Part shown: positions 3,986 through 62,491 of the stretch, one piece after another | Numbering within the stretch: position 1 is the stretch's first letter | Layout of the letters: each line of letters begins with the position of its first letter | From: an uncultured Candidatus Micrarchaeota archaeon | GTDB taxonomy: Archaea > Micrarchaeota > Micrarchaeia > Anstonellales > Bilamarchaeaceae | Assembly: GCA_963800555.1 (NCBI GenBank) | Contig: CAWDBH010000008.1 | Location: 113,117 to 177,116, forward strand | Length of the DNA stretch: 64,000 nt | Direction: 5' to 3' | The notes under the pieces: generated by a model | Database searches by the model: none | What the model saw: the letters and a program-made list of their open reading frames with translations, nothing else | Told to the model about the DNA's origin: nothing | Position numbers and translations under genes: made by a program

Positions 3986-4047
3986 GCGATCACCCCTATC
4001 TCTATCTCTCCCAAGGTAGTATAAATACTTGGGGTTTTTAGCGAAAT

Positions 4048-7966: not shown

Positions 7967-8006
7967 AACCACCCCAAACTTCCCAAAGCTACTTATGATA
8001 GGATAC

Positions 8007-41766: not shown

Positions 41767-44496
41767 CTACTTCCTCTCCCCGTAAGCCTCCACGAACTTG
41801 CGGTATTCATCGAGCAGGTCCGGGGTTATCGAGGGCCTCCTGGTCTTTATTACGTCCAGCAGGCTCTGGGTCGTTATGGTCGTCGCATTCCCGGCAAGCT
41901 TCGAGCGCAGGGCGTCCATCTTGGCCGACTGGCAGACCGATGCTATGTCCGCACCGCTGAATCCCGCAGTGGCGCTCGCGAGCATGTCCGTGTTCACCCC
42001 CTGCGCGAAATTGCCCAGATAGAGCGTGAACATGTCGCTCCTGCCTTTGGTGTCCGGCGGAGGGACGTAGAATATCTTGTCGAAACGGCCAGGCCTCATT
42101 ATCGCAGGGTCCATGAGGAACGGCTTGTTCGTGGCTCCGATGACGACCACCCCGCCCTGGCCCTTGATGCCGTCCATCTCTGTCAGGAACTGGCCGAGCA
42201 CCTCGGAGGATCCGCCCATGCCGCGGGCCGGCGCGAAAGTCTCTATCTCATCCACGAATATTATGCCGGGTGGGTTCTCCCTCGCCCTGTTGAACGTCTC
42301 CTTTATGACTCCGGTGGCCTGCACGTATCCTTTCTTCATGAGCTCCGCGCCGCTTATCGTCTGGAACGATGCGTGCAGCTCGTTGGCCGCAGCCTTGACG
42401 ATGAGCGTCTTTCCAGTTCCCGGAGGCCCGAAAAGCAGGAGCCCCTTGCTCGGCTTCACCTTGAACTCCTTCATCTCGGCCTCATGCAGAAGAGGGAGTT
42501 CTATGGCCTCGAGGAGGGATCGCTTGACCAGGTCCATCCCCACGACGTCGGACCATCTCGTCAACGCTTCCCTGGTTTTATCCTCTTCGGGTTTCTTGCC
42601 CCCGGTTCTGCGCTCGAAATCCATCCTGAACTGCTCGTACATGTCCATCTGGGCGAGGCCCGTGCTGGGCTTCACGCCCGCGATGACGTTCATGAAATGC
42701 GACATGTTTGTAGGAATGATCTTGTTTTGCGCTAAGGCTTCCCTCGCCGTCATGTTCTTCGCTTCCTCGACGATGTTCTTTATGTCCGCGCCCGAGAAGC
42801 GGTCCGTCTTGCGGACGAGCTCGTCCACGTTCACATCTGGCGCGATCTGCATCTTCCTCATCGCGACCTTGAATATCCCTCTCCTCGCCTCCGGGTCCGG
42901 AAGGTGCATGTAGATTATCTTATCCAGCCTGCCCGGCCTCAGGATCGCTGGATCCAGCTCGTTCGGGAGGTTCGTCGCTCCGATGACGATTACAGGCTTA
43001 TCCGATTTGGCTCCGCCATCCATCTCCTGGAGCATCGTGGTCAATACCCTAGGTCCCACCGAGTCCAATCCTTCGCCCATGGTCGTCCTCTTCTTGGCGA
43101 CGGAATCTATCTCATCGAAGAACAGCACGGTCGGGGCGTTCTTGCGCGCGTTGTCGAACACCTCTTTCACATTCTTTTCTGATTCGCCATACCATTGAGA
43201 GAGTATCTGCGAGCATCTCACTTCCACGAAGTTGTAGCCGAGTTCTTTTGCGAGCGCCCTCATCAGCATGGTCTTTCCCGTACCTGGCGGGCCGAAGAGC
43301 AGTATTCCTTTCGGAGCCGTGAGACCGTACGCGAAGGCGATGTCCTTCTTCTGCAATGGCATCATTATCGCATCGCGCAGCTCCTGCTTGACGTCGTCAT
43401 AGCCGCCGACGTCGTCCATGCCTTTCTCCGAGCCGCCTGCGGACATGTCGGTCATGCCGAACTTGCCGTACGATTTCATCTTCTCCTTGCGGTTTATCTC
43501 GGATTCACGGCTTATGCTGATGCCGAAATTTTCGAGCCCCCCGAGCACCGCTATCGTGAGCACGACGCCTCCTATGAATTCTATCTTGAAGCCGGTCCCG
43601 TATATCGCTCCGATAAGGACATAAGCCGGTATCAGCAGGAGCATGGCCAACGACGATGTGAGCTGCGGCCTTTTCTTGAAGACAGTTGGGAGGAAACCGA
43701 TGAGGAAGAGCACGATGCCCCACGAAGCCATCTGCAGTATCAGGGAGTCTCCGGTGGCCATGTACATCGCATTGCCAGCTATCCACGCGATTGAATCCCA
43801 CATCCTGGACATATTGCTTAAATCGAAGAAGTTCCCGATGGCGGTGCCGAGCTGCGAGCCGATGTCGCCGATGTCCACGGAGCCTTTCGTGAACTGGAGC
43901 TCGGCTTTCCCGGGTTGATAGAGCGTCATCTTCAGGGGCATGTACGCCGTGTTATCCACAAGCCAGATGGAAGACAGCAGCAGGATCATGAACACGGAGA
44001 CCAATGAGATTGTGATGCTCTTTTTCGAGCCGAAATGCAGCGCTCCAATCCCCATCCCGACCATGCTCAGCCATCCTGCGAACGGGAGCCTACCGAAAGC
44101 GAACGGGGCGAGTATGAATACCTCTAGGGCTGCGATGAGCAGCCAGTCATCGAATACCGTCATCTGGATTATGACAAGCAGGATGAGATAGAACCAGCCG
44201 AAGACAGCGGACTGATACATGACAGCCGGTATTCCGAACACCGCTCCGATGATGATTCCCACGGAAGGATTTTTGTACGCGATCGCGCCTGCGACCAACG
44301 CCAGGGCGAACACTATGTAGATTGGATAAAATGGAATAGCCGAGAGCAGGAGCAGGGTGGATATGAATACGATGACCGCGCTCCAGAGGCCCTCGTTCTT
44401 CTGGGCCATCGCCACATACGCGCCGACCTTCTGCGCGGCCATGGATTTCTGCATGTCCTTCAAGCCCTGCATCTCCGCCATGGGATGCTCTATCAT
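41767..44496 (-). CDS. Membrane-anchored Cdc48/VCP-like double-AAA ATPase
   Basis: About 330-aa N-terminal region with 8 or more TM helices. D1: 'ILLFGPPGTGKTM', 'VLFFDEIDSV', 'ATNLPNELDPAILRPGRLD'. D2: 'LLLFGPPGTGKTL', 'IIFVDEIETF', 'RPGRFD'. Confidence 0.8.
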   Translation of the reverse strand: MIEHPMAEMQGLKDMQKSMAAQKVGAYVAMAQKNEGLWSAVIVFISTLLLLSAIPFYPIYIVFALALVAGAIAYKNPSVGIIIGAVFGIPAVMYQSAVFGWFYLILLVIIQMTVFDDWLLIAALEVFILAPFAFGRLPFAGWLSMVGMGIGALHFGSKKSITISLVSVFMILLLSSIWLVDNTAYMPLKMTLYQPGKAELQFTKGSVDIGDIGSQLGTAIGNFFDLSNMSRMWDSIAWIAGNAMYMATGDSLILQMASWGIVLFLIGFLPTVFKKRPQLTSSLAMLLLIPAYVLIGAIYGTGFKIEFIGGVVLTIAVLGGLENFGISISRESEINRKEKMKSYGKFGMTDMSAGGSEKGMDDVGGYDDVKQELRDAIMMPLQKKDIAFAYGLTAPKGILLFGPPGTGKTMLMRALAKELGYNFVEVRCSQILSQWYGESEKNVKEVFDNARKNAPTVLFFDEIDSVAKKRTTMGEGLDSVGPRVLTTMLQEMDGGAKSDKPVIVIGATNLPNELDPAILRPGRLDKIIYMHLPDPEARRGIFKVAMRKMQIAPDVNVDELVRKTDRFSGADIKNIVEEAKNMTAREALAQNKIIPTNMSHFMNVIAGVKPSTGLAQMDMYEQFRMDFERRTGGKKPEEDKTREALTRWSDVVGMDLVKRSLLEAIELPLLHEAEMKEFKVKPSKGLLLFGPPGTGKTLIVKAAANELHASFQTISGAELMKKGYVQATGVIKETFNRARENPPGIIFVDEIETFAPARGMGGSSEVLGQFLTEMDGIKGQGGVVVIGATNKPFLMDPAIMRPGRFDKIFYVPPPDTKGRSDMFTLYLGNFAQGVNTDMLASATAGFSGADIASVCQSAKMDALRSKLAGNATTITTQSLLDVIKTRRPSITPDLLDEYRKFVEAYGERK

Positions 44497-44520
44497 AATA
44501 TGATTATTAACCTGTCGCGG

Positions 44521-44967
44521 CTATTCGACATAGTCGTCTAAGGGGTTTCCGGAATGGGATCTGTACTGCCCGAGTAGTTTCTTCATGTCGGTGGATGCGC
44601 TCGCTACATCATCATGGCCTTTGCTCTTGGCGACTACAGTCACCTCACGCAAGAGGGTTTCCAGCATGCCGACTAGCTTATCTCGATTGAACATCGATTT
44701 CGCCACCATGCTGTCGAGCGATCTTACAGCAGCGATGACATCTGCTTTACCTGCGCGTTCGCTTGGGGCAGCATATGCACGCAAGGCGCTACACGCTGAT
44801 GTCACAATCAGATGCTCTGCTATGATGTCCGCATGGTCCCTATGTCGAAGTGCGGATAATTCATCTACGAGAAGAAGCGGGGATTTGGCTGGTCCTTTCA
44901 AAGGCCCTTTTTCTAAGTTACTGGCTTTGAGCGGTTGCGCCAACTTCCGGTCACCTGAAAATTCCAC
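44521..44967 (-). CDS. Hypothetical protein (148 aa), co-directional and 24 nt upstream of the membrane Cdc48 gene
   Basis: ORF with a GTG start and helical, protein-like composition. No recognised domain. Confidence 0.4.
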   Translation of the reverse strand: MEFSGDRKLAQPLKASNLEKGPLKGPAKSPLLLVDELSALRHRDHADIIAEHLIVTSACSALRAYAAPSERAGKADVIAAVRSLDSMVAKSMFNRDKLVGMLETLLREVTVVAKSKGHDDVASASTDMKKLLGQYRSHSGNPLDDYVE

Positions 44968-45114
44968 GCAGGGAAAATATATAAATGGGAGGCGGGTTTC
45001 GCGTTGCCAGTGGGATTTCGAGATGATTCATAGGCCGATTGCACCCTTTTAATTGGTTTTGGTGCAAATCGGTAGTTGTACATAGAAAACTGTGGTTTAT
45101 AGAGGTGGGATTGA
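44968..45114. promoter_or_regulatory. Divergent intergenic/promoter region between the two AAA loci
   Basis: TATA-like 'AAAATATATAAATG' (44974-44987). SD 'GAGGTGGG' (45102-45109) lies 5 nt before ATG 45115. Confidence 0.3.
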
Positions 45115-46662
45115 ATGATGGGCAAGTCTTTTACCAAAAGCAGCAGTCTAATGATAAGCGGGGAAAAAATCAGGGGCACCAATATATTCGTTCCGCAACG
45201 GCTGGAAAAGACCCGCGAGCTTCTTGTCGAGGGCATAACCGGGTACAAGAACCTCGGGCCGTATGGTTCGTTCGGAGTCCTGTTGAAAGGGATCGCGGGC
45301 ACCGGTAAAAGCATGTTCACAAGGTATATCGCGGATGAAAGCCAGACCGGAGCGCTTCTATTCCGCGCGCCGATGCTGACCGATCCGGAAGAGGTGAGGC
45401 AGCTATACGAATCCGCGAGGGCTGGTGCGAAAGACCATCCGGTGGTCATTCTCCTGGATGATTTCGATTATGTCGGAAAGCGCAGCGAATCCACCAATCC
45501 CGCGTTCAGGCCCATCCTGGCGCAGACCCTCGCCGAGATGGACGCTCCGGGCAAGAACCTCGGCGTCTTCACGTTCATAACCTCGAACCTGCCGGACATG
45601 CTTGATGAGGCTCTGCGCAGGCCGCCGAGGGTAACTTTCGAGATAGAATTCCTCCCCCCGACGCGCAGCGAGAGGGAAAAGATGCTCAAAGCTATACTCT
45701 CAGATCAGAGCATCCGGTCGAAATGGGAAGATGGCACGATTGCGTATGCGGCGAGCATCACGTTCGGTTATACCCCGGGCGACCTTCTCGGCGTGGTGCA
45801 GAACGCGATGATCCAGGCCAGGGTCGTGAAATCCGAGAAAGTCACCAACGTCCATGTCGATGCTGCGAAAAGCATGCAGAAACCTTCGGCGATACGCGAC
45901 ATGCCGTTCATAGAGCCCAAAGACAAGCTCGACAGCCTCGCCGGCGGATATATCTCAGCTCAGAAAGAGATGCTCGCGAAGCTTGGGGTGCGGATGGATA
46001 ACGGCGTCCTCGCGATAATCTACGGACCTTCAGGATGCGGCAAGACCGCTCTCGCGAAAGCGGTGGCCGCCGAGTTCGGTTGCAACTGCCTCTACTTCAA
46101 CCCTTCGCATATAATCGACAAATTCGTCGGGGAATCCGGCAAGGCGCTCGCTCGAGCGTTCAGCAGGGCGAGGGCGCTCAGCCCGTGCATATTGATACTC
46201 GACCAGGCCGAGGGCATACTCAATCCCGATAACCAGTATTCGAAGGACTGGACATCGGTGCTGAAATCCGAGCTCTCGGTTCCCATGCCCGGGGTCTTCG
46301 TCATGATGACCGGGACCGATCCATCGAACTGGGGGGACGAGGTGCTCACGCGTTTCCACAAGATACACGTGCCGAGGCCGGATGCCAAGTCCCAGGTTGA
46401 GATACTAAGGGCTCTCATACCAGCGGACGATCGAAAAAACGTGGATGTCGAAAGCGTCATGCGTTCAAGCCAAGGCAAGCTCACGCCCAGGGAGATAAGC
46501 ACCGCGTTGACCAGCATCCGGGATTTCGGGAGTGCTATCACCACCGATACCCTCCAGAAGGTATTGAGCGTCCAAGGCGGAGAGATCAATGAAGCCAATG
46601 AAAAACAGGTCGCTGAACGCGTCGGAGATGCCACCAAGACGTTCAGGGCCTTGATAGGGTGA
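45115..46662 (+). CDS. Tandem AAA+ protein with non-canonical Walker B motifs in both modules
   Basis: D1: Walker A 'GIAGTGKS' (45289-45312), Walker B 'VVILLDDFD' (45442-45468). D2: Walker A 'GPSGCGKT' (46024-46047), Walker B 'CILILDQAE' (46186-46212). No Cdc48-type N domain. Confidence 0.75.
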   Translation: MMGKSFTKSSSLMISGEKIRGTNIFVPQRLEKTRELLVEGITGYKNLGPYGSFGVLLKGIAGTGKSMFTRYIADESQTGALLFRAPMLTDPEEVRQLYESARAGAKDHPVVILLDDFDYVGKRSESTNPAFRPILAQTLAEMDAPGKNLGVFTFITSNLPDMLDEALRRPPRVTFEIEFLPPTRSEREKMLKAILSDQSIRSKWEDGTIAYAASITFGYTPGDLLGVVQNAMIQARVVKSEKVTNVHVDAAKSMQKPSAIRDMPFIEPKDKLDSLAGGYISAQKEMLAKLGVRMDNGVLAIIYGPSGCGKTALAKAVAAEFGCNCLYFNPSHIIDKFVGESGKALARAFSRARALSPCILILDQAEGILNPDNQYSKDWTSVLKSELSVPMPGVFVMMTGTDPSNWGDEVLTRFHKIHVPRPDAKSQVEILRALIPADDRKNVDVESVMRSSQGKLTPREISTALTSIRDFGSAITTDTLQKVLSVQGGEINEANEKQVAERVGDATKTFRALIG

Positions 46663-46666
46663 TCGC

Positions 46667-47185
46667 ATGACTATGAAACATGGTTCCGGGCCGCGGCAGG
46701 ATGCACGGCAAAAACCGGCATTTGAAGGAAATCTGTTGAAGACGCACGAAGTCCAGGTCAATCTCATATACATGCGGGGAGGCCAACAGGTCACGGAAAC
46801 CGTGGTCGTGCCTAAATCACTCATCACCGCAATGGCAGACCCGGGGGAGAGCAGCATGGGGCCCATGGAAGCCATGGAAAACCTCAGGGAGTTCAACAAC
46901 CTCAGGCTCGGCCCGGAACTCATATCGCTCAGCGAGCGTGGCGGTGTTTCGGTCCCGGCGGCCATCCTCGGATCCCAGGTGCAGCACGCGTATTCTGTGC
47001 ACGCGGTCATCGCAGCGGCGGATAAAAATATATCCGGCAGCCTCATGCTCCAGCACCCGGAAGTCAAGAAAAGGCTGAGGACGATCGCCGCCACCCTGAC
47101 CGGGGTCTCTTTGGATCAGGTGAAGGAACTGGAATCTCAGGGAAACTACCGTGTGGGTGGGCAGGACGGTCATCGTGAGGTCTAA
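46667..47185 (+). CDS. Hypothetical protein (172 aa), operon member
   Basis: The ATG is 4 nt after the AAA stop, with SD 'GGGTGAT' upstream. No recognised domain. Confidence 0.45.
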   Translation: MTMKHGSGPRQDARQKPAFEGNLLKTHEVQVNLIYMRGGQQVTETVVVPKSLITAMADPGESSMGPMEAMENLREFNNLRLGPELISLSERGGVSVPAAILGSQVQHAYSVHAVIAAADKNISGSLMLQHPEVKKRLRTIAATLTGVSLDQVKELESQGNYRVGGQDGHREV

Positions 47186-47186
47186 T

Positions 47187-47477
47187 GTGCCGACCATAAG
47201 TTTCAAGACGCAGAGGATCAAGTGCGATATGGGAAGCCATACCGAAGAGAGGGAAATGACGCTCCCTGCGGAGACCAGCGTCGCCGAGGCGAAGAAAGAG
47301 CAGGAGCAGAGGATAAGGCGGCTTCCGCAAGTGCAAGGCCAGCTCGAAGACGCATTCGGCCAGATAGAATCCTTGCGCGGCAAGCCATTGAATCCCGATG
47401 AGAGGAACGCGGTCGTCGCGCATCTCAACCTCACTTACATAAAAGACCCGAAGCAAAGGCTGATCGTGGCTCCGTAG
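47187..47477 (+). CDS. Hypothetical protein (~96 aa), operon member
   Basis: The GTG at 47187 is 1 nt after the upstream TAA, with 'GAGGT' 5 nt upstream. The product begins (M)PTISFKTQ. The track ORF begins earlier, at 47151, inside the upstream gene. Confidence 0.4.
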   Translation: MPTISFKTQRIKCDMGSHTEEREMTLPAETSVAEAKKEQEQRIRRLPQVQGQLEDAFGQIESLRGKPLNPDERNAVVAHLNLTYIKDPKQRLIVAP

Positions 47478-47485
47478 GTGTCCTT

Positions 47486-48688
47486 TTGCCGACCATAAAA
47501 TTCCAGCCCAGCGAGATGCGCTCCATGCTGGCGAAAAGCATGGGCAAGATGCGCATGCTCAGGAAGAAATCCATCATCGAAGGGAAAATGGGTCCAGAGA
47601 AGGGGGAGTACGCGAAGGAAGTGGTATGCGCGGCATCGTTCATAGACTCGCTCTGGAACGAAGAGCGCATCAAGAGCACGGTGAGCGCGTTGATCGACGC
47701 TTATAACGGGGACCCTGCGCTAGCCAGATACGATAGCACGCAGGAAGCGTGGTGGGCCGAGCAGGAGGAAGGGGCGGCATTCCTCCGGACGCTGCATACC
47801 ATGACCGCGTATTGCCTCCGCGGGGCGGCATGCGGGCCTGAGGACGCGGCACACATCCTCCAGGTGATGAAGCACCTCAATGAAAGCGAGGAAAGCCGCT
47901 CGGATAAGGATTTCATCCTGCCTGCCTATGGCGGTCTGGGTATCGGATCGGAATACCTGGGCCCGGTTCTCGCAAGCATGACGGGAAACAGATTTCTTCT
48001 GCCGAAAGCGGCCGGGCTCGCTCTAGACCTGGACTGGTACCCGGACGATTCGAAGGAGGGGCTGGCCGAGACATCTAAGGCGCTGGAAGCGGCCGCGAAG
48101 CTCGGGTTCTACAGGATCCTGTTCCAGATGCCTGCGGCCTGCTCTTACGATCAGCTCTATAAGAAATTCGAAGTGGAGGCGGCGCAGACCGAAAGCGGGA
48201 TAATCGGCAGCATATCCTGCAGGCCTCAAAAGGAGGAAGGGAAGCCGAAAACGCTATTCCAGCAGCTTGAGAACGGGGATAAGAAACTCAGCGAAGTCAA
48301 GGATTCCGAATTCGTCCGGGCGGATGATCTGGTCTTCCTTAGAACCCGCTCCACGACAGTCGCGGCGTGCATAGACTCGGTCGGATTCGCTGAAAGGGTG
48401 CTGTTCACTGCTGCGGAAGGGGAGCTCTCAGCGAGCGGAGGCGTCTATTTCCACATCGCTGGAGACAGCGGGAATAAATCCGGGTCCGGGGTTCTCGGGA
48501 TAATCACGGAAAGGTTCTGCGCCACCAGGATGTTGGGGGACAACCAGTTTTCCATCGACGGTTTAAGCGGGATGCTGGATGAACTTACCGCAAAATGCGG
48601 GGCCAAGGCGATGACATTCTACGCGACAGTGAAGAACAGCAAGACCGAAGAGGAGTACGATGTCGAGGCGGTGGAAGATGCCGGTTAG
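47486..48688 (+). CDS. Hypothetical protein (400 aa), operon member
   Basis: TTG start with 'AGGTG' 6 nt upstream. The product begins (M)PTIKFQPS. No recognised domain. Confidence 0.5.
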   Translation: MPTIKFQPSEMRSMLAKSMGKMRMLRKKSIIEGKMGPEKGEYAKEVVCAASFIDSLWNEERIKSTVSALIDAYNGDPALARYDSTQEAWWAEQEEGAAFLRTLHTMTAYCLRGAACGPEDAAHILQVMKHLNESEESRSDKDFILPAYGGLGIGSEYLGPVLASMTGNRFLLPKAAGLALDLDWYPDDSKEGLAETSKALEAAAKLGFYRILFQMPAACSYDQLYKKFEVEAAQTESGIIGSISCRPQKEEGKPKTLFQQLENGDKKLSEVKDSEFVRADDLVFLRTRSTTVAACIDSVGFAERVLFTAAEGELSASGGVYFHIAGDSGNKSGSGVLGIITERFCATRMLGDNQFSIDGLSGMLDELTAKCGAKAMTFYATVKNSKTEEEYDVEAVEDAG

Positions 48689-49445
48689 ATCGATGACCAT
48701 AGACGTGACGGGTAAATGCCAGAACCGCTGCAGATTCTGCTACACCCGGGACAAAGAAAGCGTGATGGCATTCGAGCGGTTCAAAGGCCTGGTCGATGGT
48801 TTCCCATCGCTTGAAAGGGTCGAGGTCGGCGGAGGGGAGCCGCTCCTCAACCCAGATCTGTCCCGCATGGCAGCGTATCTCCTCTCGAAAAAACTCCGCA
48901 CTGACATATCCACGAACGGTCTGATATATCCGGAATGCATCGTGCGGCTGGCTGCAGGGGAGCTGCTGAGCCTGCAGGTCAATTTCCCTGCCGGGGAGGA
49001 GAATGCTTATGATCTGGTCACGCGCACGAGTGAAGGTTTCCCAACCCTTCTGGAAAACGTGAAGCGGCTTGCTGCGACCGGGCTTAGGACGAGGCTGAGG
49101 CTCACCATATGCCCCGAAAACGCATCGCAGCTCGTGCCTGTTTTCCACATCGCAAACGGATTGAATCTGCCCCTCATCGTGGCTCCGGCTCTTCCTGTCA
49201 AGGGAAATCCCGCGCAGATGCTTGAAACAGATGAAATAGACGAATTGCACATGAGGGCAATGATGCTGAAAATGCGTCATCGAGCGCGTTTGGATTTTTT
49301 ATGGTCGCATGGCGAGACGCCATGCCCGGCAGTTGCAAAAGCATACCGATTGCCCTTGCGGATAATGCGGTGCAGCGCAGATATCGGGGAGAAGGTCCAT
49401 GTGGACCCTGCAGGCATCATAAGGGGGTGCGAGTTCCTTGGCTGA
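48660..49445 (+). CDS. Small radical-SAM enzyme with a C-terminal Cys-containing (twitch/SPASM-like) extension
   Basis: 'GKCQNRCRFCY' is CX3CX2C (48717-48740). 'VGGGEPLL'. C-terminal Cys residues 'CPAV...RCSA...GCEF'. ATG 48678 (SD 'GGCGGTGG') or 48693 are likelier starts than 48660. Confidence 0.75.
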   Translation: MSRRWKMPVRSMTIDVTGKCQNRCRFCYTRDKESVMAFERFKGLVDGFPSLERVEVGGGEPLLNPDLSRMAAYLLSKKLRTDISTNGLIYPECIVRLAAGELLSLQVNFPAGEENAYDLVTRTSEGFPTLLENVKRLAATGLRTRLRLTICPENASQLVPVFHIANGLNLPLIVAPALPVKGNPAQMLETDEIDELHMRAMMLKMRHRARLDFLWSHGETPCPAVAKAYRLPLRIMRCSADIGEKVHVDPAGIIRGCEFLG

Positions 49446-52400
49446 AACCACTTTCAAAAGTGAAAAGCCCGTAAAGCCCGAAGAAAGGGCTGCCGGCAGA
49501 CCGAAAGGGTATTGGCAGGGGCTGCTCAGCGATGCGAGCCTGGCGCCAGTGAGAAAGCCGGAACCGAAACCAAAACCGGAGCGGCTGCCCGAATCGCAGC
49601 TGCGCGAACTTTTGTCCTCTCTGGGAAACAGAAACTTAAGCGAGGAACGCGGGGAATATATGTCGGAGAGTGACGTAGAACAGAATGTGCATGTGATAAA
49701 CTCTGTGGCCAATTGGCTCGATAGCCTCGGAGACATCCACACCGAAGATGCCAAGAAAATAATCCAAGCGGCATGGAGGTCACAGTCCAGCATGTTGCAG
49801 GGGAAGGCGTGCAAGAGCATCCCTATACTGCCTTCGGAAGAGCAGGTGCCCATGTTTGAATTAGCTTTAGCGGAGATGCCCGGATCGCGTTCATTCCACG
49901 ATATATTCGATTCGATATCCAAAACATGTCCTGAAACGGATAGATCGAGGCTCGCAAGGGCCGCATTGAATTCAGATCACCCTGGGTTGCAAGAAAAGGG
50001 ATTAAGATTAATATTTTCCTTGCCTGAGGCCGAACGTTCGGAGCTGGTTGTAACCGCGTTGGCAAAAAGCGGGGTGGCGATGGGAGCGTTTGATCGCATC
50101 GAAGAATGCCCCGGACAAGATAGGGTCAGGCTGATTAGTGCGGCATGGGGGTCCCCGTTGCTATCTGTCCGGGAAAAAGCAGTCGGAGCCATACCATCGT
50201 TACCTGCAGATGGGCGTGTCATCGCAATCGAAGTCGTTTTAACGGATACCGAGACCTCAAAAGGCGCCAGAGAAGCGTTTGACTTTGTATTCCAGAACTG
50301 CCAGGAAACAGATAAGTCAAGGCTCATCAAGGCGGGGCTGAAATCCAAGGACAACGATATCGCCAAAAGGTCATTGAAACTCGCTGAAGGGCGGGCGGAT
50401 GAAGCCGAGCTGCTGATGGCAGTGCTCGAACCCGCCATAGAAACCGGCTCAGCGTACCGCAGTAACGCATATCATTATCGGCATAATGTCTCCGCACCAG
50501 AATTCGAGGTCGAGGTGCAGGCCGCAGAACGCGCGTGCAGCATTCCGGAGAACCCGAAGCTCCTCGAGACGGCGAGCAAGGTCATGGCGCAGACATTAGC
50601 TAGCAAACCCAATACCCGGCCAGGCATTCTGCTCATGATCCCGAAGTTCCCTGCAGGATACCGCGCTGATATTATCGAAGCCGCCTTGTCATCAGATGAG
50701 TTAATCGACTCGATACCACTCATCTCCGGGGTTCTCCCAGCCGAACGCAGGGACGCGCTTTGGCATAAGGCAGAGGTGTCGGTCACAAATAAACTGGGGT
50801 GGCGGAGTGTTGATGAGAAACTAGCCGCTACTTTTCCGCTTTTTCCATCTCAATACCGGGTGAATATCATCAATTGCGTGCTTGCGCAGGATCTGAGTCA
50901 AGGAGCCAATTCCAGTCAGACCGTTGACTTTCTGATGTGCTTCAAGACTTGGGAACTCATTTCCGGACTTGACCCAGAGCATCAGGAAAAGAGCTGGAAA
51001 CTCGCCCAGACCGCGATCATAAACGCGCTTAGATACCGGTTAAATTCGGAGATCAGATTGGAAGCAGTGAGGCTTGCAGTCAAACTCCCCACAGTGCACT
51101 CGGAGCCTGTTTTCTGGCGCATCGCGAATTCTACTTATCCGAATGTGCATCAGGAAATGGACCGCTTGTTCGATCTCATGCCATCAGAAAATCAGGTCGC
51201 GTATCTCATGCAAGCGTTTGAATCGTATAAATCTGGTACAAGGAGGAAAGCGTTCGAGAAGACCTTCTCTATGACGGAAGAGCAGCAGATCGAACTGCTC
51301 GAATGTGCGCTCGAATCGAGTTATGAGGACATCCGGATGATAGCTGTGAGGAGGAAGCGGGATATCCCGGAGAAAACACAGATGGCGCTCCTGCCAAGCA
51401 TGATTCATGATACGGACGAAAGAATTCGCATCGAGGCGACGTTGTCTTCGCCAGTCGGAAATGAAGAAATGAAAAAAACAGTGCTGTCGGCGTTGAAATC
51501 AGATGACCAGCTAGTGTTTCTCACTGCGCTTGGGCTCTCAAATGGATTGTTTAGTTCGGATGAGCAGAAAAATATCTCGAGTCGGGCGGCTTACAAAAAA
51601 ACCAAGTCAGCGCTTGGCTCGGGCCAGTATGATATCCGCATGAAGGCAGCGGATGCAATCGTGGCTTTCGATGGGCGCAGAAAATACGCGCTGGTGAAAA
51701 ACGCGCTCAATTCAGATCATCTTGGGGTGCGACAAAAAGGGATTGAACACACATTTGATTATAACGATCCGATGGAGCAGAAAAAACTAGCCAAAAAAGC
51801 ATTGCAATCCCGATACGGGGATAACATAGTTAAAATTGCATTCGAGCTTTTGGCCGAGAAGGACGTTACGATATGTGGTTGGCAGACGCCTGAGCTTCTT
51901 AAGCTGGCAGAGGAAAGGCTCGGGCAATCACTGAAATGGGCGAATGTCGAAGCTAATCAGCATAACACGGAAGCGATTAGTTATTGGAATCTAGAACGCC
52001 AGGTGGACCGCGGCGTGATCGCGCATGCGATGCAGTGGCCATTCCCCCAGAGATTTTCAACCTGTATTATCGAGTGCGCAGCCAGGTCAGGACCGAAAGG
52101 CTGCCTTGCAATCGTGAAAAAGAAAGCTTCGTTCGGTTGCATTAGGGCATATGTGCTGACAAACGTGCTTAACCAAGAGAAGTATTGGGCAGACGCGGTC
52201 GAGATGATCCCATCGTTTCCGGTCAGCGCAGAATATCATGAAACTCGGGAATCCCTGTGGGATACTGCAGCGATAAGCGCGGAAAAGGCGCTCTGCAGCG
52301 GGGTAAAGCCGAAAAAGGCAGGGATGCTCCTAAAGACATTCCCGAAAGAGCACTGGCCAGCGCTTGTGGCGCTCAGGGACAAGGCGCTTCCCGAACCAAT

Positions 52401-53973
52401 AAGTTTTTTTATCGCAGCGCTCGCGGTCCAGATGCCGGAGGAGGCTGGGAGGGGCGCCCTGCCATGGGCGGCTCCGCTAATTGCCACCGGGCTGGATTCT
52501 TCAGACCCTGCCGTATGCCACGAAGCGGTTCTGTGTTACCCCGGGATCCCCAAAGCATATTCATCTGATAGCGCACTGGCGGCCGCGATTGGAAAATTTA
52601 GGGTAATGCTCCTTTCAGAAGATAACACCGTTTCCATACGTGCGTCTGAACGCATCGGAGCATTCCCCAAGGAGCACCAGCCCGAGTTGATTGAAGCCGC
52701 CATGGCATCAAACTGGTGGTATACCATCCTGAATAGCATGCCGCTGCTGCAGAAACTGCCACCCGGGCTTCAAAGAGAACCGTCTTGGGGACTTGCGATT
52801 AATCACGCGAGCATCGCGCATTACTGCCCTGTCGAATCTATCCGCGCATGGGCAATAGATATCGCTGCCGCATTTCCCGAGAACAGGTTTGCGGAAGTAT
52901 TGGCGCACACGACCCCATATTCAGATAAATCCCACCTGGAGAATCTCATCAGGAGAAGGATGGAGATCAAGAAATCAACCATTCCACCCAATGCGGTATC
53001 CTGCATAGCAGAGCTGCCAGAAGGGCGGCGAACTGAGATTTACGAGGTCGCGATAAAATCCATAGCATCCAGGCTTAGCTCCGACGATTCCGCCATTTCT
53101 AAGAACGCATCCGAGCTCATGGGAATATTCCCCCAAGAGCACCAACCCGAGTTGATTGAAGCCGCCATGGCGTCCGGTTGGGGATTCGCCGCTCAGGCCG
53201 CAATTAAGCTTCTGATGGAATTGCCTCAAGAGCTCCAGGCAGAGAAGTCCTGGCTGGCGGCCCAGAAGCAAGCGAAAGCCGCGCTTGTCGGAAAACCGAC
53301 TTCGACCGGAATACCTGCTGATACCATGCTCGAGACGGTCCGGAAGTTCCCCAAACAACGTCAGGAAGCGGTGCTCAGGGATGTGTTTGAAGGCAATCCG
53401 GAAAACGTTTCACTCGAGCTGGTAAAATTAGGTATTGAATGCGATGATACGCAGATTGCGCTCGACGCGGTAATCTCCGCATGCAACCTGGCTGATAATT
53501 ACAGGGCGATGCATCCCCTGCCTGAGGGAAGAAGGAAAGTTCTCCTGCAAAATGATGACCCGGTGTTCTTATTGGTTGACGCGCTAATTCCAGTTCTCGA
53601 TGCGCTAGATTCGAAAGACTATCCGATCGTGGCGAAGGCCTCGGGATGCATAAGCAGATTCCCGCTCCAGTTCCGGGCTGGAATGATAAAATCCCTGATG
53701 GATTCGGGATTCTGGGGTCCGACATTGGATGGGATATCAATGCTGCAGAACCTGCCGATACCCATGCAATCTGAGGAATTATGGGCAGAGGCTCAATCAT
53801 GGATGATATCCGCTTTCTCGCTGGATTCGGATCATCTGCGCCAGAGGGCCGTCAAACTCCTTCCCGGTTTCCCGAAGTCTCGTCTGAGATTGCTGATCAT
53901 GGTTGCAGAGCTGTCAGAATTCGATGACGTGAAGAACAATCTCGAAGAAGCCCGCATGATGGAAAATAAATGA
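49438..53973 (+). CDS. Giant HEAT/ARM-like alpha-solenoid repeat protein (1511 aa)
   Basis: TTG start overlapping the rSAM stop, with 'GGGGGTG' upstream. Reiterated ~70-aa units such as 'C.ETD(K/R)SRL(I/A)(K/R)A(G/A)L(K/N)S.D...' and 'FP(K/Q)EHQPELIEAAMAS.W'. No signal peptide or TM. Confidence 0.7.
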   Translation: MAETTFKSEKPVKPEERAAGRPKGYWQGLLSDASLAPVRKPEPKPKPERLPESQLRELLSSLGNRNLSEERGEYMSESDVEQNVHVINSVANWLDSLGDIHTEDAKKIIQAAWRSQSSMLQGKACKSIPILPSEEQVPMFELALAEMPGSRSFHDIFDSISKTCPETDRSRLARAALNSDHPGLQEKGLRLIFSLPEAERSELVVTALAKSGVAMGAFDRIEECPGQDRVRLISAAWGSPLLSVREKAVGAIPSLPADGRVIAIEVVLTDTETSKGAREAFDFVFQNCQETDKSRLIKAGLKSKDNDIAKRSLKLAEGRADEAELLMAVLEPAIETGSAYRSNAYHYRHNVSAPEFEVEVQAAERACSIPENPKLLETASKVMAQTLASKPNTRPGILLMIPKFPAGYRADIIEAALSSDELIDSIPLISGVLPAERRDALWHKAEVSVTNKLGWRSVDEKLAATFPLFPSQYRVNIINCVLAQDLSQGANSSQTVDFLMCFKTWELISGLDPEHQEKSWKLAQTAIINALRYRLNSEIRLEAVRLAVKLPTVHSEPVFWRIANSTYPNVHQEMDRLFDLMPSENQVAYLMQAFESYKSGTRRKAFEKTFSMTEEQQIELLECALESSYEDIRMIAVRRKRDIPEKTQMALLPSMIHDTDERIRIEATLSSPVGNEEMKKTVLSALKSDDQLVFLTALGLSNGLFSSDEQKNISSRAAYKKTKSALGSGQYDIRMKAADAIVAFDGRRKYALVKNALNSDHLGVRQKGIEHTFDYNDPMEQKKLAKKALQSRYGDNIVKIAFELLAEKDVTICGWQTPELLKLAEERLGQSLKWANVEANQHNTEAISYWNLERQVDRGVIAHAMQWPFPQRFSTCIIECAARSGPKGCLAIVKKKASFGCIRAYVLTNVLNQEKYWADAVEMIPSFPVSAEYHETRESLWDTAAISAEKALCSGVKPKKAGMLLKTFPKEHWPALVALRDKALPEPISFFIAALAVQMPEEAGRGALPWAAPLIATGLDSSDPAVCHEAVLCYPGIPKAYSSDSALAAAIGKFRVMLLSEDNTVSIRASERIGAFPKEHQPELIEAAMASNWWYTILNSMPLLQKLPPGLQREPSWGLAINHASIAHYCPVESIRAWAIDIAAAFPENRFAEVLAHTTPYSDKSHLENLIRRRMEIKKSTIPPNAVSCIAELPEGRRTEIYEVAIKSIASRLSSDDSAISKNASELMGIFPQEHQPELIEAAMASGWGFAAQAAIKLLMELPQELQAEKSWLAAQKQAKAALVGKPTSTGIPADTMLETVRKFPKQRQEAVLRDVFEGNPENVSLELVKLGIECDDTQIALDAVISACNLADNYRAMHPLPEGRRKVLLQNDDPVFLLVDALIPVLDALDSKDYPIVAKASGCISRFPLQFRAGMIKSLMDSGFWGPTLDGISMLQNLPIPMQSEELWAEAQSWMISAFSLDSDHLRQRAVKLLPGFPKSRLRLLIMVAELSEFDDVKNNLEEARMMENK

Positions 53974-56900
53974 TCGTGATGTTCATGGCCAAAACCCGAT
54001 TTAAACCTGAAAACGCCGCAAAGCCCGAAAAGACTGCCGGCAAGCCTTTGAGCTACTGGAATGGCTTGTTGAACGACGCGGACCTTAAGCCAATGAAGAA
54101 ACCGGATCCGAAATTAATGGTGGAGCGGCTGCCGGAATCCCAACTGCGAGATATCCTAACGTCCCTGAAGCACAAAAACCTAAGCGAGGCTCGCGGGGCA
54201 TACATGCAGGATAGCGATGTAGAACTGAATCGGGATGTGATAACCTCGGTTGCCAAATGGCTTGATAACCTTGGAGACCTTCATCCAGAAGACGCCATGG
54301 AAATAGTCCTGGCGGCATTGGACTCGTCATCGGATATATTACGCACAACCGCATACCAGAACATCAATATGCTGCCAGTGAGCGAGCAGGTACGCATTAT
54401 CGAGAAATTGGCTGCCAGACCGTCAGAGTGGTCAAAACTCGAAATGGAGATGTTAGATTGCGTATTCGAAGAATGCTCCGAAACGGATAAGGCCAAGCTG
54501 ATTAGGATCGCACTGAAATCATTTTCCTATCGGTTGCAGGCAATGGCATGCGAGAACATATCCCTGCTGCCAGTGAACGAGCAGGTGGACGCAGTTGAAA
54601 AGATTTTGGCACCTGATCGTCGTACGCGTTCCGAGGAATTTTCAAAATCCATCATCAAAGGTTTCATCGAGGTGCTGGCGCTATGCAAAGAGCCGGCGGG
54701 TCAGGTTCGTCTGATCAACGCGGCATTGGAATCATCGTTGGAAGCGGTGAGGATGCAGGCATGCGAATGCATCCCCATGCTTGAAGCTGGTGTGTGCGCG
54801 GGCGCGATCGAAACCGCCTTGACACGCTGCGATCCGGATACCGCGAGGAAAGCGTTCGAGCGGATTGGGGTATGTTCGCAAACAGAGAAATCGAGGCTTA
54901 TCAAGATCGGGCTGAAGTATAGGGACAAAAGAATCTGCGAGCAATCGTTCGGATTGATAAGCGGGCAGCCGGACGAGGTTGATCTGCTGATGGAGGCTCT
55001 TGAATCGAGCCATGAACTCCCGATGCGCGCAGCCGAACGCGCATGCAGCCTTCCGGAAAACGAAACTCTCCTAATCGCAGCAAGCAAGTGCGTCACACAA
55101 GCATTCCACAAGGATCCCGAAACTCGCGGGGATATCCTTCGCTTGATACCTAAGTTTCCTGCAAAATACCGCGCAGACATGGTCGAAGCAGTCCTATCGG
55201 CAGGAGACCTGATCAATTCTATATCTCTGATCCCAGAAGTCTTACCCTTGGAACGCCGAGCTAAGCTTTGGAACGCGGCTGGAGCGGCAATCTCGTGTGC
55301 GATCAAGAGCGGAGAAGGAATGCCCGTGCATGAAGCGATCAAGCTCGCCATCAAACTTCCGAAAGAGCACTCGCCCCGCGTGTTCTGGCATATCGCAAAT
55401 TCGACCAATACGGATGCGCATCGGCAGATGGTCGCGATGTTGGATATCCTTCCTGCGGAAAAACAGGCAGCATACCTAGTGCAGGCTTTTGAATCGTATA
55501 AATCCAGTTCCAGGAAAGAAGCGTTCGAGAGAATATTCGCGTTGCCGGAAGCTCAGCAGATAGAGCTGCTCGAGTGCGCGCTGGAATCTGGTTACGAGGA
55601 TATCAGGGTCATGGCCGCGAGAGGGAAGCGGGATATCCCAAATAATGCGAGGCTAGTGCTCCTCCCTAGTTTGATTCGTGACCTGGACAGCCGGATTTCC
55701 CTGGGAGCTGTGCTAGCCCAGCCAATCAGCAAAGAAGCTAGGAAAAGTGCCGTGCTATCTGCTTTGGAATCAGATGACATCCTGGTCTTCCTTACTGCTC
55801 TTGACCTCTCCATAGGTTTGTTCAGTCCGGAGGAGATGGATACGATCTCGTGGAGATCGGTTTTCAGGAAGGTCAAGTCTGCTATTGGGTCAAGCCAATA
55901 CGAAGTGCGCATGGAGGCGGCAGAGGCGATAGCGGCTTTCGACGGGCGCAAGAAATACAAATTGACAAAAAGAGCCCTTGGTTCAAGATATCTGGGGGTG
56001 CGGCAAAAGGCGATCGAGCACACGCTTGATTATCCAGATATTAAAAGACGGAATAGATTGGCCAAAGCGGCGCTGAAATCAAAATACGGGGACAACGTCC
56101 TTAAAATCGCATTCGAGCTATTGGCCTATAAGGAAGAGACGATAACCAATATGAAAGTCCCCAAGCTTCATAAGTTGGCGGAGAGCCGGTATCTAAACGT
56201 GCTGTTCTATTCAAATCCTGCCGATCACTATGTTCCCCGGAGCTTGAGATCTGAGGTAGATGACAGCTTCATCGCCCATTCCTATGTTCCCCGGAGCTTG
56301 AGATGCGAGATGGATGACGGCTTCATCGCCCATGCGATGGAATGGCCTTACTCCAATCATTTTTCCTGGCTTGTCGACTGCGCAGTCAGGGCAGGGCCGA
56401 AAGGCTCCATCGCAGTCGCAAAAAAGAGCCTTTCCGATACCAAAGCAATAGAAGCTTACAAGTTAGGGGAGGCGCTAAGCACGGCGATTTACCGTGAGAG
56501 GTACTGGGCCGACGCGATCGCATACATACCTTCTTTTCCTAACGGATGCAATTGGGAATCAAGGGAATCCTTATGGCGCAAGGCATCAGAGAACGCTGAA
56601 AAAGCCATCTGCAGCGGGATAAAGCCGAAAAAGGCAGGGATGCTCCTAAAGACGTTCCCGAAAGAGCACTGGCCGGCTCTGATCGCGCTTAATAAGAAGG
56701 TGCAGCACGGTCCCGCTGCTTTCTACATAGCCGAGCTTGCGATGGAATTGCCGGAAAAGTGCGATAAAGACACCCTGTCGTGGGCGGCGTCGCAGATATC
56801 GCTTGGATTGGATTCATCGGATGCGGAAATGCGCAAGCGCGCGATACTGTCTTTCCCAGCGGCAGGGAAAATCCAGCAGTTTGGCGCGATAGCATGGACC

Positions 56901-57497
56901 ACCGCTATGGAGAAAACCAAGGCGATGATATGCTCGGATGAATCTGGTGATGCTATAGAGGCATCCAAACGCATTGGGATGTTCCCGCAAGAGCGGCAAC
57001 CCGAACTGATCGAAGCCGCCCTGCAATCGAAGTGGTGGAACTCGATACTTGACGGGATAGACGCGCTGGCGAAGCATCCGAATCTCCGGGACGAGAGATT
57101 GTGGAGCAAGGCGCTCGATTGGACGATGCGATCCCGTGGCTGCACCACCGAAACGATCCGCATGCACGCAGTGGAAATCGCCTCCTCCTTCCCTGCGGAA
57201 CGCTATCTCGCTTCGTTGGCGATGGCGAGTGCGCTGCCCGACAAAACCCATCTCGGGAATCTCATAAGGAAACGGCTGGAATCAGATAGAACAATTCCCC
57301 CCGCCATGATATCCCGCATCGCTGATTTGCCTGAAGGGCAACGGGCCGGGATGTATGACCTCGCGGTCAAATCCATAACCGCCAGGCTCGGTTCAAATGA
57401 TCATGGTATCGTGTCAAATGCGTCGGATTGCATAGGCAGCTTCCCGCCCTCGCTTCAAGTGGGCCTGATAATATCCACGCGCAGGTTCGCGACCTAG
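53970..57497 (+). CDS. Giant HEAT/ARM-like alpha-solenoid repeat protein (1175 aa), paralogue of the preceding gene
   Basis: Collinear similarity to the upstream protein from the N-terminus ('MAKTRFKPEN...ERLPESQLRDILTSL' vs 'AETTFKSEKP...ERLPESQLRELLSSL'). ATG 53985 aligns best with the paralogue's start. The ATGA at 53970 overlaps the upstream stop. Confidence 0.7.
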   Translation: MIVMFMAKTRFKPENAAKPEKTAGKPLSYWNGLLNDADLKPMKKPDPKLMVERLPESQLRDILTSLKHKNLSEARGAYMQDSDVELNRDVITSVAKWLDNLGDLHPEDAMEIVLAALDSSSDILRTTAYQNINMLPVSEQVRIIEKLAARPSEWSKLEMEMLDCVFEECSETDKAKLIRIALKSFSYRLQAMACENISLLPVNEQVDAVEKILAPDRRTRSEEFSKSIIKGFIEVLALCKEPAGQVRLINAALESSLEAVRMQACECIPMLEAGVCAGAIETALTRCDPDTARKAFERIGVCSQTEKSRLIKIGLKYRDKRICEQSFGLISGQPDEVDLLMEALESSHELPMRAAERACSLPENETLLIAASKCVTQAFHKDPETRGDILRLIPKFPAKYRADMVEAVLSAGDLINSISLIPEVLPLERRAKLWNAAGAAISCAIKSGEGMPVHEAIKLAIKLPKEHSPRVFWHIANSTNTDAHRQMVAMLDILPAEKQAAYLVQAFESYKSSSRKEAFERIFALPEAQQIELLECALESGYEDIRVMAARGKRDIPNNARLVLLPSLIRDLDSRISLGAVLAQPISKEARKSAVLSALESDDILVFLTALDLSIGLFSPEEMDTISWRSVFRKVKSAIGSSQYEVRMEAAEAIAAFDGRKKYKLTKRALGSRYLGVRQKAIEHTLDYPDIKRRNRLAKAALKSKYGDNVLKIAFELLAYKEETITNMKVPKLHKLAESRYLNVLFYSNPADHYVPRSLRSEVDDSFIAHSYVPRSLRCEMDDGFIAHAMEWPYSNHFSWLVDCAVRAGPKGSIAVAKKSLSDTKAIEAYKLGEALSTAIYRERYWADAIAYIPSFPNGCNWESRESLWRKASENAEKAICSGIKPKKAGMLLKTFPKEHWPALIALNKKVQHGPAAFYIAELAMELPEKCDKDTLSWAASQISLGLDSSDAEMRKRAILSFPAAGKIQQFGAIAWTTAMEKTKAMICSDESGDAIEASKRIGMFPQERQPELIEAALQSKWWNSILDGIDALAKHPNLRDERLWSKALDWTMRSRGCTTETIRMHAVEIASSFPAERYLASLAMASALPDKTHLGNLIRKRLESDRTIPPAMISRIADLPEGQRAGMYDLAVKSITARLGSNDHGIVSNASDCIGSFPPSLQVGLIISTRRFAT
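56228..56335 (+). repeat. In-frame 2 x 54-bp tandem duplication inside the second giant gene
   Basis: Copy 1 (56228-56281): 'ctatgttccccggagcttgagatctgaggtagatgacagcttcatcgcccattc'. Copy 2 (56282-56335): 'ctatgttccccggagcttgagatgcgagatggatgacggcttcatcgcccatgc'. They encode 'YVPRSLRSEVDDSFIAHS' and 'YVPRSLRCEMDDGFIAHA'. Confidence 0.85.
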
Positions 57498-60010: not shown

Positions 60011-60095
60011 ATCCGCACCACACCCATATCTGTATAGATTCAATAATAATTGTATGCTACCCAGGATTCGCTTGGGGGTAAGGTGCCTTCGATAA

Positions 60096-60356
60096 TCATC
60101 CTATCCTGATATCCGGCTCGATCTTTCTCCAGTCCATGTTCATGAACTGCCAGAGCGTTTTCGTCGTCGAATCATACACCAGGTCGTTCTTGGATGCAAC
60201 CTCCTTCGGCCTGTCTATCTCTATGAGCGGGAATCGCCGCATGAACATTATCTCATCGCGGAAAGGGTTGCGCTCTATGACATAGATGCGCTTGCGCTCG
60301 GCCTTGACCTTCTCGCACCATTCCATGACCTTGTCTATCTCTTCTTTGGTGACCAT
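60096..60356 (-). CDS. Hypothetical small protein (86 aa)
   Basis: ORF with normal composition. No recognised domain. Confidence 0.45.
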   Translation of the reverse strand: MVTKEEIDKVMEWCEKVKAERKRIYVIERNPFRDEIMFMRRFPLIEIDRPKEVASKNDLVYDSTTKTLWQFMNMDWRKIEPDIRIG

Positions 60357-60409
60357 TTTTTCCCCTTCATGCGAACTGTATTATATAGTTTCCCGGTTTA
60401 ATAATAAAT

Positions 60410-62450: not shown

Positions 62451-62491
62451 CCACCTGACGCGCGAACCGCGATCATTCTTCCCGAGGACAG

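Follow-up and report, generated by a model that had tools for sequence, protein, structure and literature searches.

Tandem AAA+ unfoldases (Cdc48, VAT, p97 and Rix7), SPASM/twitch radical S-adenosylmethionine (rSAM) enzymes (MftC, SkfB, PapB, ScmE/F, anSME, BtrN, MoaA, BlsE and AhbC/NirJ), precursors of ribosomally synthesized and post-translationally modified peptides (RiPPs) of the NHLP/Nif11 type, and large HEAT-like alpha-solenoids are the described systems closest to a gene cassette that we analyzed in an uncultured Candidatus Micrarchaeota archaeon. The cassette lies at positions 45115 to 57497 of a 64,000-nucleotide stretch of contig CAWDBH010000008.1 (assembly GCA_963800555.1), hereafter the window, and encodes a tandem AAA+ ATPase, two orphan proteins, an rSAM enzyme and two giant HEAT-like solenoids that carry a similar N-terminal tag. 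Like the Cdc48/VAT/p97/Rix7 unfoldases, the cassette AAA+ has two AAA modules per chain (D1 and D2), a D2 pore loop 1, sensor-1 and part of the second region of homology; unlike them, it lacks an N-terminal double-psi-barrel domain, a D1 pore loop and an HbYX motif, and its Walker B reads DD/ND in D1 and, in the archaeal subfamily, DQAE in D2. The cassette rSAM has CX3CX2C and GGEP motifs in common with the SPASM/twitch enzymes, along with C-terminal Cys in a hairpin-like context that would be consistent with an auxiliary-cluster domain, and is small like BtrN. Unlike those enzymes, it has three C-terminal Cys only and no RRE/PqqD domain, and its genomic partners (the AAA+, the two orphans and giant tagged proteins) differ from those of all these systems.

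NHLP/Nif11-type RiPP precursors resemble the tagged proteins in occurring as multiple paralogues beside an rSAM gene, with a conserved N-terminal segment and a hypervariable remainder, but the ‘cores’ in the cassette are folded proteins of 300-1,590 amino acids (aa) and not peptides, no leader protease or exporter accompanies them, and an AAA+ unfoldase belongs to the core. The giants appear to be large HEAT-like alpha-solenoids, resembling the retron type XIII HEAT/ARM effector (PADLOC HEAT-ARM_XIII) and DUF5724/MolR-like giants, and they match the HEAT-ARM_XIII profile locally (E 6.5e-18, ~130 residues of 1,972 profile positions); unlike retron XIII, the cassette has no reverse transcriptase, msr/msd RNA or SWIM/wHTH partner, and its tag is specific to it. 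As the original prediction for this DNA had held, no described pathway or defence system with this gene content was found in PADLOC or the literature searched, and our literature search returned no description of an rSAM, AAA and HEAT cassette in archaea or DPANN. The AAA+ and the rSAM are divergent members of known superfamilies. As far as could be determined, neither of the orphan families has been described before, nor have the tag and the architecture of the system. We rate the cassette as new at the level of the system; its function we can only infer.

The cassette is a self-contained, rare accessory unit of uncultured archaea, with an invariant core of four genes that encode a Cdc48-like tandem AAA+, a protein of 270-280 aa, a protein of ~400 aa and a putative twitch-type rSAM. 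Loci were gathered from the contigs of the 400-aa protein clusters, a metagenome scan and homologues of the 280-aa protein, and the core recurred in eight other archaeal metagenome or metagenome-assembled genome loci. The window shares the order AAA+, 280, 400, rSAM, HEAT with L001 (ENA; DUF72 upstream), L008/L009 (NCBI GCA_038890785.1, a Candidatus Bilamarchaeaceae genome of the Micrarchaeia, DPANN; an RTC fragment and small open reading frames (ORFs) upstream) and L016 (NCBI GCA_976602505.1), and a partial JGI locus, L004, also has the window gene order. The rSAM and 400-aa genes are swapped in L007 (a 258-kb JGI contig), L010 (Logan; unrelated ORFs and PurP upstream) and L011 (ENA), giving AAA+, 280, (client), rSAM, 400 and then several clients, where ‘clients’ are tag-bearing proteins encoded beside the core; all three of these loci have multiple clients. 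We take L010 to be archaeal because it is flanked by PurP and RadA. The eighth locus, for which there is no DNA, is the contig carrying P0012. Identity to the window is 40-61% for the AAA+ (orthologues in L001, L007, L008, L010 and L011; 60% for the Bilamarchaeaceae locus, a value that suggests but does not establish a related lineage), 40-54% for the 280-aa protein, 26-40% for the 400-aa protein and 34-49% for the rSAM, and the flanking genes are unlike in every locus (DUF72; AsnC, Dph2 and RTC; PurP and RadA). The synteny check in related archaeal loci bore out the cassette as a recurrent unit.

The original prediction described seven genes, three of them orphans, as one expression unit. All seven plus-strand ORFs are present at the predicted coordinates, with junctions of +4, +1, +8, -11, -8 and -4 nt and overlapping start and stop codons at three of them, and the recurrence of the gene order in eight independent, diverged loci with different flanking genes supports a single unit. 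The count, on the other hand, falls to six genes and two orphan families, because ORF2 (46667-47185) and ORF3 (47187-47477) are one frameshifted gene. The proposed upstream box was borne out as GGTG, which lies at -16 to -4 of five of the six real starts as against 3.4% of regional positions. Among the proposed starts, GTG 47187 proved to be an internal Val codon, and TTG 47486 is upheld by an N-terminal extension conserved in L008, L007 and L011. The operon has a GC content of 0.51-0.58, the same as its flanks, and ends at 57497, since the genes that follow are on the minus strand. Upstream lies an AT-rich intergenic region of 147 nt (44968-45114) with a TATA-like sequence, AAAATATATAAAT, at 44974-44986; we presume this to be a promoter region common to the operon and a divergent 148-aa ORF.

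The operon had also been described as divergently paired with a second AAA locus (41767-44967). A functional link between the two is not supported, as that locus is absent upstream of the related loci (L001, L008 and L010 differ). We left its 909-aa Cdc48-like gene and the 148-aa ORF out of the system because neither was seen at other loci. Three classic-clade AAA+ genes do lie within a 15-kb span of the window: the 909-aa gene (41767-44496, minus strand), whose ~340-aa N-terminal region has hydrophobic stretches and no family; a TPR-AAA fusion of 579 aa (31924-33663, plus strand); and the cassette's own (45115-46662, plus strand). The 909-aa and TPR-AAA genes are not conserved beside the cassette elsewhere.

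Gene 1 (45115-46662, plus strand) encodes a 515-aa type II (tandem) classic-clade AAA+ protein with ~50 residues ahead of D1. It had been called a degenerate tandem AAA; the tandem arrangement stands (PF00004, 133.6 bits, in two stretches), and the degeneracy is only partial. D1 has Walker A GIAGTGKS (GxxGTGK[ST] in the family), Walker B DD ([DN]D in the family), the sensor-1 N and RRPPR, with a deletion where pore loop 1 belongs. D2 has Walker A GPSGCGKT, the pore loop KFVGE (DK[FY]VGE in the family, with K[FY]VGE conserved), Walker B DQAE and one retained Arg. The DQAE motif is a conserved non-canonical feature of the archaeal subfamily, in contrast to the canonical DE of the AAA+ proteins in a sister clade described below. 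The nearest PDB sequences are Rix7, VAT, p97 and Afg2 (E 1e-46 to 1e-36 for the first three). Membership of the Cdc48/VAT/p97 family itself did not follow: gene 1 scored 133.4 bits against TIGR01243, which has a cut-off of 802.65, there was no CDC48_N match in Pfam, the Walker B departs from the canonical form in D1 as well as D2, and all PAN models were below cut-off. The C-termini of six AAA+ members (…FRALIG, …IKKISG, …GKGGM, …GSGKK and others) have no penultimate Tyr and hence no HbYX.

Gene 2 is the frameshifted gene. ORF2 and ORF3 are the halves of one conserved gene of 270-281 aa, which is a single unsplit ORF in nine of nine database homologues and in L001, L007, L008, L010, L011 and L016. 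The N-terminal part in frame A (46667-47140, plus strand) aligns with residues 1-170 of intact homologues, and the C-terminal part in frame B (47142-47477, plus strand) was placed by alignment with homologues and a structure model. Between them, at CAG GGA AAC (47138-47146, plus strand), is a +1 frameshift, CAG-G-GAA, with one G more in GGG 47140-47142 than the intact homologues have. Past …KELESQ, frame A drifts until it meets a stop at 47185, and frame B reads ETTVWVGRTVIV… from 47142, the equivalent of ETTVFVGRTITK in L001. Dropping one G of the GGG joins the frames into a 269-aa product with 43-52% identity to its counterparts in L007 and L001; its closest relative, P0010 (74% identity), reads through unshifted. 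GTG 47187 is thus an internal codon, and there are two orphan families rather than three. The extra G is most simply read as a 1-nt insertion that arose recently or as an error in the assembly. The gene in the window may be freshly inactivated, expressed in two separate domains or assembled with one base wrong. The break falls in a low-confidence inter-domain linker (in the P0007 model, predicted local distance difference test (pLDDT) <50 for residues 168-195), and a two-piece product might for that reason still work. The local heptamer, G GGA AAC, resembles a classic -1 slippery site; programmed frameshifting at CAGGGAAAC was dropped, since a +1 shift would be required here and all homologues read without a shift.

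The gene 2 product keeps DPGES and SYxxHA in its N-terminal part, and its C-terminal part has an invariant C-D-x-x-S-H-x-E hairpin, a long helical hairpin and an ERNAVVAHLNxTYI motif. The AlphaFold2 (AF2) model of the 280-aa family (pLDDT 70.9, predicted template modelling score 0.65) comprises an N-terminal bb-a-a-bb unit (b, strand; a, helix), helices, the C-D-x-x-S-H-x-E hairpin, which is flexible, and the long helical hairpin; the C-D-x-x-S-H-x-E hairpin holds the sole invariant Cys of the core outside the rSAM. The model is of usable quality but had no Foldseek match in the PDB at E < 1, and a beta-grasp reading of the N-terminal unit was dropped on that ground.

Gene 3 (47486-48688, plus strand, TTG start) encodes the 400-aa orphan. 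This family combines a helical N-terminal domain (approximately residues 1-230; motifs YDSTQxxWW, LPAYGG and LDWYPDD) with an alpha/beta C-terminal half. The N-terminal domain is common to the sister clade, the C-terminal half occurs only in the tag-bearing subfamily, and distant relatives align over residues 1-230 only. AF2 modelled the 400-aa protein poorly (pLDDT 56), and Foldseek found no match to this model at E < 0.1, with a few short GNAT-like alignments (probability 0.6-0.75, ~60-88 columns) that are a lead only.

Both orphan families are extremely rare. The 400-aa protein forms only three clusters in an index of 5.8 billion proteins, and an exhaustive HMMER search of 1.84 billion representatives with the family profile recovered 18 close members (E < 1e-30) and ~66 distant ones (E 1e-13 to 1e-3), mostly of 380-640 aa with some shorter fragments, none of the distant members having a Pfam family. 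Scans of GTDB-representative genome contigs with the 400-aa and 280-aa profiles returned nothing, and two scans of 2.9 million viral contigs returned no relatives of the cassette. The orphan products had nothing in Pfam, NCBIfam, PADLOC or PHROG, their profiles gave chance matches only to PDB sequences (E > 0.5), and Pfam scans of all orphan family members at E <= 10 produced no recurrent family. For the AAA+, the rSAM and the HEAT proteins, the NCBIfam and PADLOC matches were of superfamily level only. The earlier statement that the 172-, 96- and 400-aa products match nothing is therefore correct in that no family was found, and needs amending in that the 172- and 96-aa products are one protein; structure and profile searches left the orphans outside any characterised pathway.

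Gene 4 (48678-49445, plus strand) encodes the 255-aa rSAM enzyme. Its start is 48678, which is the database form, fits the N-termini of homologues and has a GGTGG box. The CX3CX2C motif reported earlier was verified (PF04055, 50.9 bits against a cut-off of 29.5; CQNRCRFC), and CX3CX2C and GGEP are invariant in seven cassette rSAMs. Three further invariant Cys (C216, C232 and C251) lie in a C-terminal hairpin-like segment, C…C-x-A…G-x4-C, that is consistent with a twitch domain, and the rSAM of the sister-clade locus L012 shares them; the SPASM motif CX2CX5CX3C is absent and no SPASM match in Pfam was reported. The nearest PDB sequences are BlsE, MoaA and SkfB, and the best NCBIfam families are AhbC (55.7 bits), NirJ1, MftC, MoaA, ScmE/F, HxsC, PapB and SkfB, with all named families scoring ~10-fold under their cut-offs. 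The enzyme is not a viperin by profile: NF038283 gave 29.2 bits against a cut-off of 180, over residues 16-125 only, and PADLOC pVip gave 44.6 bits over the core only.

The last two genes encode the giants. Gene 5 (49438-53973, plus strand, TTG start) encodes a predicted 1,511-aa HEAT/PBS-like alpha-solenoid that matches AlphaRep designs in the PDB at residues 583-702. Gene 6 (53970-57497, plus strand), the last of the unit, encodes a paralogous HEAT solenoid of 1,175 aa. The database record starts gene 6 at 53970; its start is probably ATG 53985, where MAKTRFKP aligns with (M)AETTFKS of the gene 5 product. The giants are paralogues, as proposed, with 44-48% identity over ~1,200 aa. Their HEAT-like repeats are only partly borne out by Pfam scores, since the window giants reach 26.4 bits, just under the cut-off of 27.7, and orthologous clients pass it in L001 (51.1 bits) and L008 (69.6 bits). 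Generic HEAT_2 and HEAT are the only Pfam families for the giants at E <= 0.01, PHROGs had no match to them, and the clients of L007, L010 and L011 had no HEAT match or detectable repeats in the Pfam scan.

All genes that lie downstream of the core code for proteins with an N-terminal tag, and in L007 so do two that lie upstream of it. The tag has the form [AGV]-G-x-[PKG]-x-x-x-W-x-x-[LIM]-[LI]-x3-6-P-x-x-K, and (E/D)PK and an RLPxxQL helix often come after it. By regular expression and alignment, it reads GRPKGYWQGLLSDASLAPVRK in gene 5 (49495-49557, plus strand) and GKPLSYWNGLLNDADLKPMKK in gene 6 (54039-54101, plus strand), and a six-frame scan of the window found it at 49495 and 54039 only. 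About 20 clients were found, with the tag Trp 23-54 residues (usually ~25-30) from the called start; one L007 ORF has its tag at 129, probably because its start is over-extended. Behind the tag the client bodies diverge fast, to 22-27% identity or less, and are HEAT solenoids in the window-type loci. The 1,590-aa protein of L016, for example, matches the window giants at 22-27% in scattered segments, with the tag region aligning directly. Copy number ranges from one (L008, L016) through two (window) to eight or more (L007), and size from 74 to 1,590 aa. Among the tagged client genes of L010 is a 74-aa ORF (14161-14385) with little beyond the tag (…IGGKDETFWKKLLSTEMVAKSAPDP…), which might serve as a substrate of peptide size or be a client cut short. 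Reading the W-x-x-L of the tag as an Atg8-type LC3-interacting region (LIR) motif was rejected as unsupported.

The loci of the distant 400-family members are low in GC and make up a sister clade that comprises L012, L013/L014 (NCBI GCA_016215315.1, 32-34% GC) and L015. L012 has the order rSAM, tandem AAA+, a 318-aa protein and a distant 400-like protein, and L013/L014 have a 313-aa protein and four 400-like paralogues; no rSAM is visible in L013/L014 because the contigs begin inside the AAA+ gene. The 313-318-aa proteins are homologues of the 280-aa family (hhalign probability 98.6%), with the motifs NPGEG/DPGES, C-x-x-G-S-H-x-E and YVNxxYI in common. No tagged clients were seen in the sister-clade loci. 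From these comparisons we take the four-gene core to be the ancient unit; what sets apart the archaeal branch that includes the window is its tagged clients, the DQ Walker B of its AAA+ and the C-terminal half of its 400-aa protein. Positions 2434-9181 of L013 hold three full-length tandem 400-like paralogues (614-633 aa) and a 362-aa N-terminal fragment; the 400-like proteins of the sister clade share only the N-terminal helical domain of ~150-230 aa, and some of their relatives (P0046, P0047 and P0050) have a hydrophobic, possibly membrane-spanning middle segment.

We tentatively suggest that the core may be a protein-maturation or remodelling machine. A protein-directed machine is indicated because a peptide-modifier-like rSAM, an unfoldase-type AAA+, two co-restricted orphans and tagged clients occur together, and the best families of the rSAM include the peptide-modifying SPASM/twitch enzymes MftC, ScmE/F, HxsC, PapB and SkfB. 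In this model the rSAM would install a radical-mediated modification on a protein substrate, most likely, in the archaeal subfamily, the tagged N-termini of the clients, with the invariant W and K as candidate sites. Crosslinking of Lys to Trp by SPASM rSAMs is known chemistry from the streptide system. Alternatively, the substrate could be the Cys-His hairpin of the 270-280-aa protein, which would be the sole option in the sister clade and the only one common to both clades. The two orphan proteins would act as dedicated recognition or scaffold subunits, and the AAA+ ring would use its sole pore loop, in D2, to engage the apparently disordered tagged N-termini and then unfold, present or assemble the clients. 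The earlier analogy with RiPP maturation, drawn from an rSAM next to small ORFs, survives only in altered form: the leader-like element would be the N-terminal tag on the giants and not the small ORFs, no small precursor ORF is present in the window, and a tag-only ORF of 74 aa occurs in L010 alone. A fuller version of the proposal, which we consider unlikely as a joint claim, is a hitherto unrecognised archaeal maturation system (DPANN-type and other uncultured archaea, with a low-GC sister clade) in which leader-tagged whole folded proteins, in the window the giant HEAT solenoids, would be rSAM-modified, for example by a W/K-centred crosslink, and handled by the AAA+; it would include two new folds and apply ‘RiPP logic’ to megadalton scaffolds.

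Several observations count against a maturation or remodelling machine. The tag cannot be the universal substrate, because the sister clade has no tagged clients. The D2 DQ Walker B resembles a hydrolysis-dead trap mutant, so the ring may bind rather than translocate. The top matches of the rSAM also include the small-molecule enzymes AhbC/NirJ, MoaA and BlsE, far below cut-offs, and Pfam and NCBIfam gave no RRE/PqqD, peptidase/protease or ABC exporter match among the cassette proteins. The roles of the orphans are guesses, because neither model had a fold match and one of the models is poor, and the window's own copy of a core gene, gene 2, carries a frameshift.

The rarity and turnover of the cassette also suit a conflict or defence system, in which the variable solenoids would sense invaders, the AAA+ would be an NTP-dependent switch and the rSAM would be the effector, making for instance a viperin-like nucleotide. 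It is very rare and patchily distributed, its variable genes turn over fast and expand to one to eight or more paralogues, the differing flanks between loci mean that the cassette acts as a movable module, and there are weak PADLOC matches to IetA (81.5 bits), pVip (44.6 bits) and the retron-XIII HEAT-ARM (61.6 bits). These matches, however, look superfamily-level (in NCBIfam, viperin scores 29 bits against 180 and IteA 77.5 against 510), and no full system of PADLOC-DB v2 was matched, only isolated IetA, TRIP13, pVip and HEAT-ARM_XIII matches with no IetS or reverse transcriptase partner. With no nuclease, toxin or membrane-disrupting effector in the cassette, housekeeping neighbours (H+-PPase, TrpD, PurP, RadA and Dph2) in place of a defence island, and no relatives in the viral contigs, we regard defence as rather improbable. 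More doubtful still is a cofactor or small-molecule pathway, in which an AhbC/NirJ/MoaA-like rSAM would act on a tetrapyrrole or nucleotide, the PBS-lyase-type HEAT proteins would bind or deliver the product and the AAA+ would insert it in the manner of chelatase-type or maturation ATPases. Twitch rSAMs of BtrN size are often small-molecule enzymes, the top NCBIfam matches of this one are AhbC, NirJ1 and MoaA, and the gene 5 product has a weak NblB/PBS-lyase-like match as well as its AlphaRep-type repeats. Yet the rSAM scores are ~10-fold below the family cut-offs, the cassette has no further biosynthetic enzymes, the AAA+ belongs to the classic unfoldase clade with a substrate-threading pore loop and not to the chelatase/MoxR type, and such a pathway would leave the tag and the fast-diverging clients unexplained.

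The original prediction had likened the giants to proteasome caps or scaffolds (PA200/Blm10, Ecm29) or to condensin subunits. On such a reading they would work with a Cdc48/PAN-like unfoldase in protein quality control. The AAA+ is indeed closest to Rix7, VAT and p97 and the giants appear to be HEAT solenoids, but the analogy does not carry further and we consider it highly improbable: the AAA+ lacks the Cdc48 N-domain and HbYX and falls short of TIGR01243 (133 against 802) and the PAN models, the giants have no family-specific HEAT domain (no Blm10, PA200, Ecm29 or condensin match in Pfam), none of the loci has a proteasome or SMC gene linked to it, and the rSAM and the two orphans would be left unexplained. 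We give almost no credence to the possibility that these are independent neighbours with no function in common, packed closely by chance. In each locus of sufficient length all four core families are found together, across 26-61% identity and into the sister clade, and they are otherwise almost absent from 1.84-5.8 billion proteins; together with the start/stop overlaps at three junctions, this conserved synteny effectively refutes independence.

If a maturation or remodelling machine is correct, rSAM chemistry and an AAA+ unfoldase would be joined in one machine acting on large, tagged, fast-evolving proteins, a combination for which we found no published precedent, and two protein families with no detectable relatives would gain a function. 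At least one DPANN (Micrarchaeota) genome carries the cassette, and 12 kb is a notable investment for a genome of reduced gene content. Whatever the mechanism, the four-gene core, the 20-residue tag and the sister clade offer handles for experiment.

The window is chromosomal archaeal DNA, encoding a TFB homologue, IleRS, ValRS, an H+/Na+-PPase and an archaeal PEP carboxylase, as well as malic enzyme, dihydroorotase and TrpD. A tRNA match of 107 nt at 8725-8831 (plus strand; Rfam, 42.9 bits) is of intron-containing length and consistent with an archaeal host, and two ordinary tRNAs lie on the minus strand at 5530-5602 and 5678-5751. The C-terminal 200 residues of a 634-aa ORF (3200-5104, minus strand) match TFIIB/TFB (128 bits against a cut-off of 384); its N-terminal extension of ~430 aa, with no family match, is unusually long for a TFB. 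A 720-aa ORF (5810-7972, minus strand) has no NCBIfam match, and a 614-aa coiled-coil protein (9562-11406, plus strand) has weak SMC/ASRP-like matches. At the far end of the window, GC content rises from ~0.53-0.57 to 0.62-0.69 over 60001-64000, which could be foreign DNA or an assembly join. This region holds the minus-strand ORFs 60398-61180, 61149-62450 and 62862-63806, which have no NCBIfam family apart from a weak match of the N-terminal part of 61149-62450 to the Thoeris type III protein ThcB4 (43 bits against a cut-off of 220).

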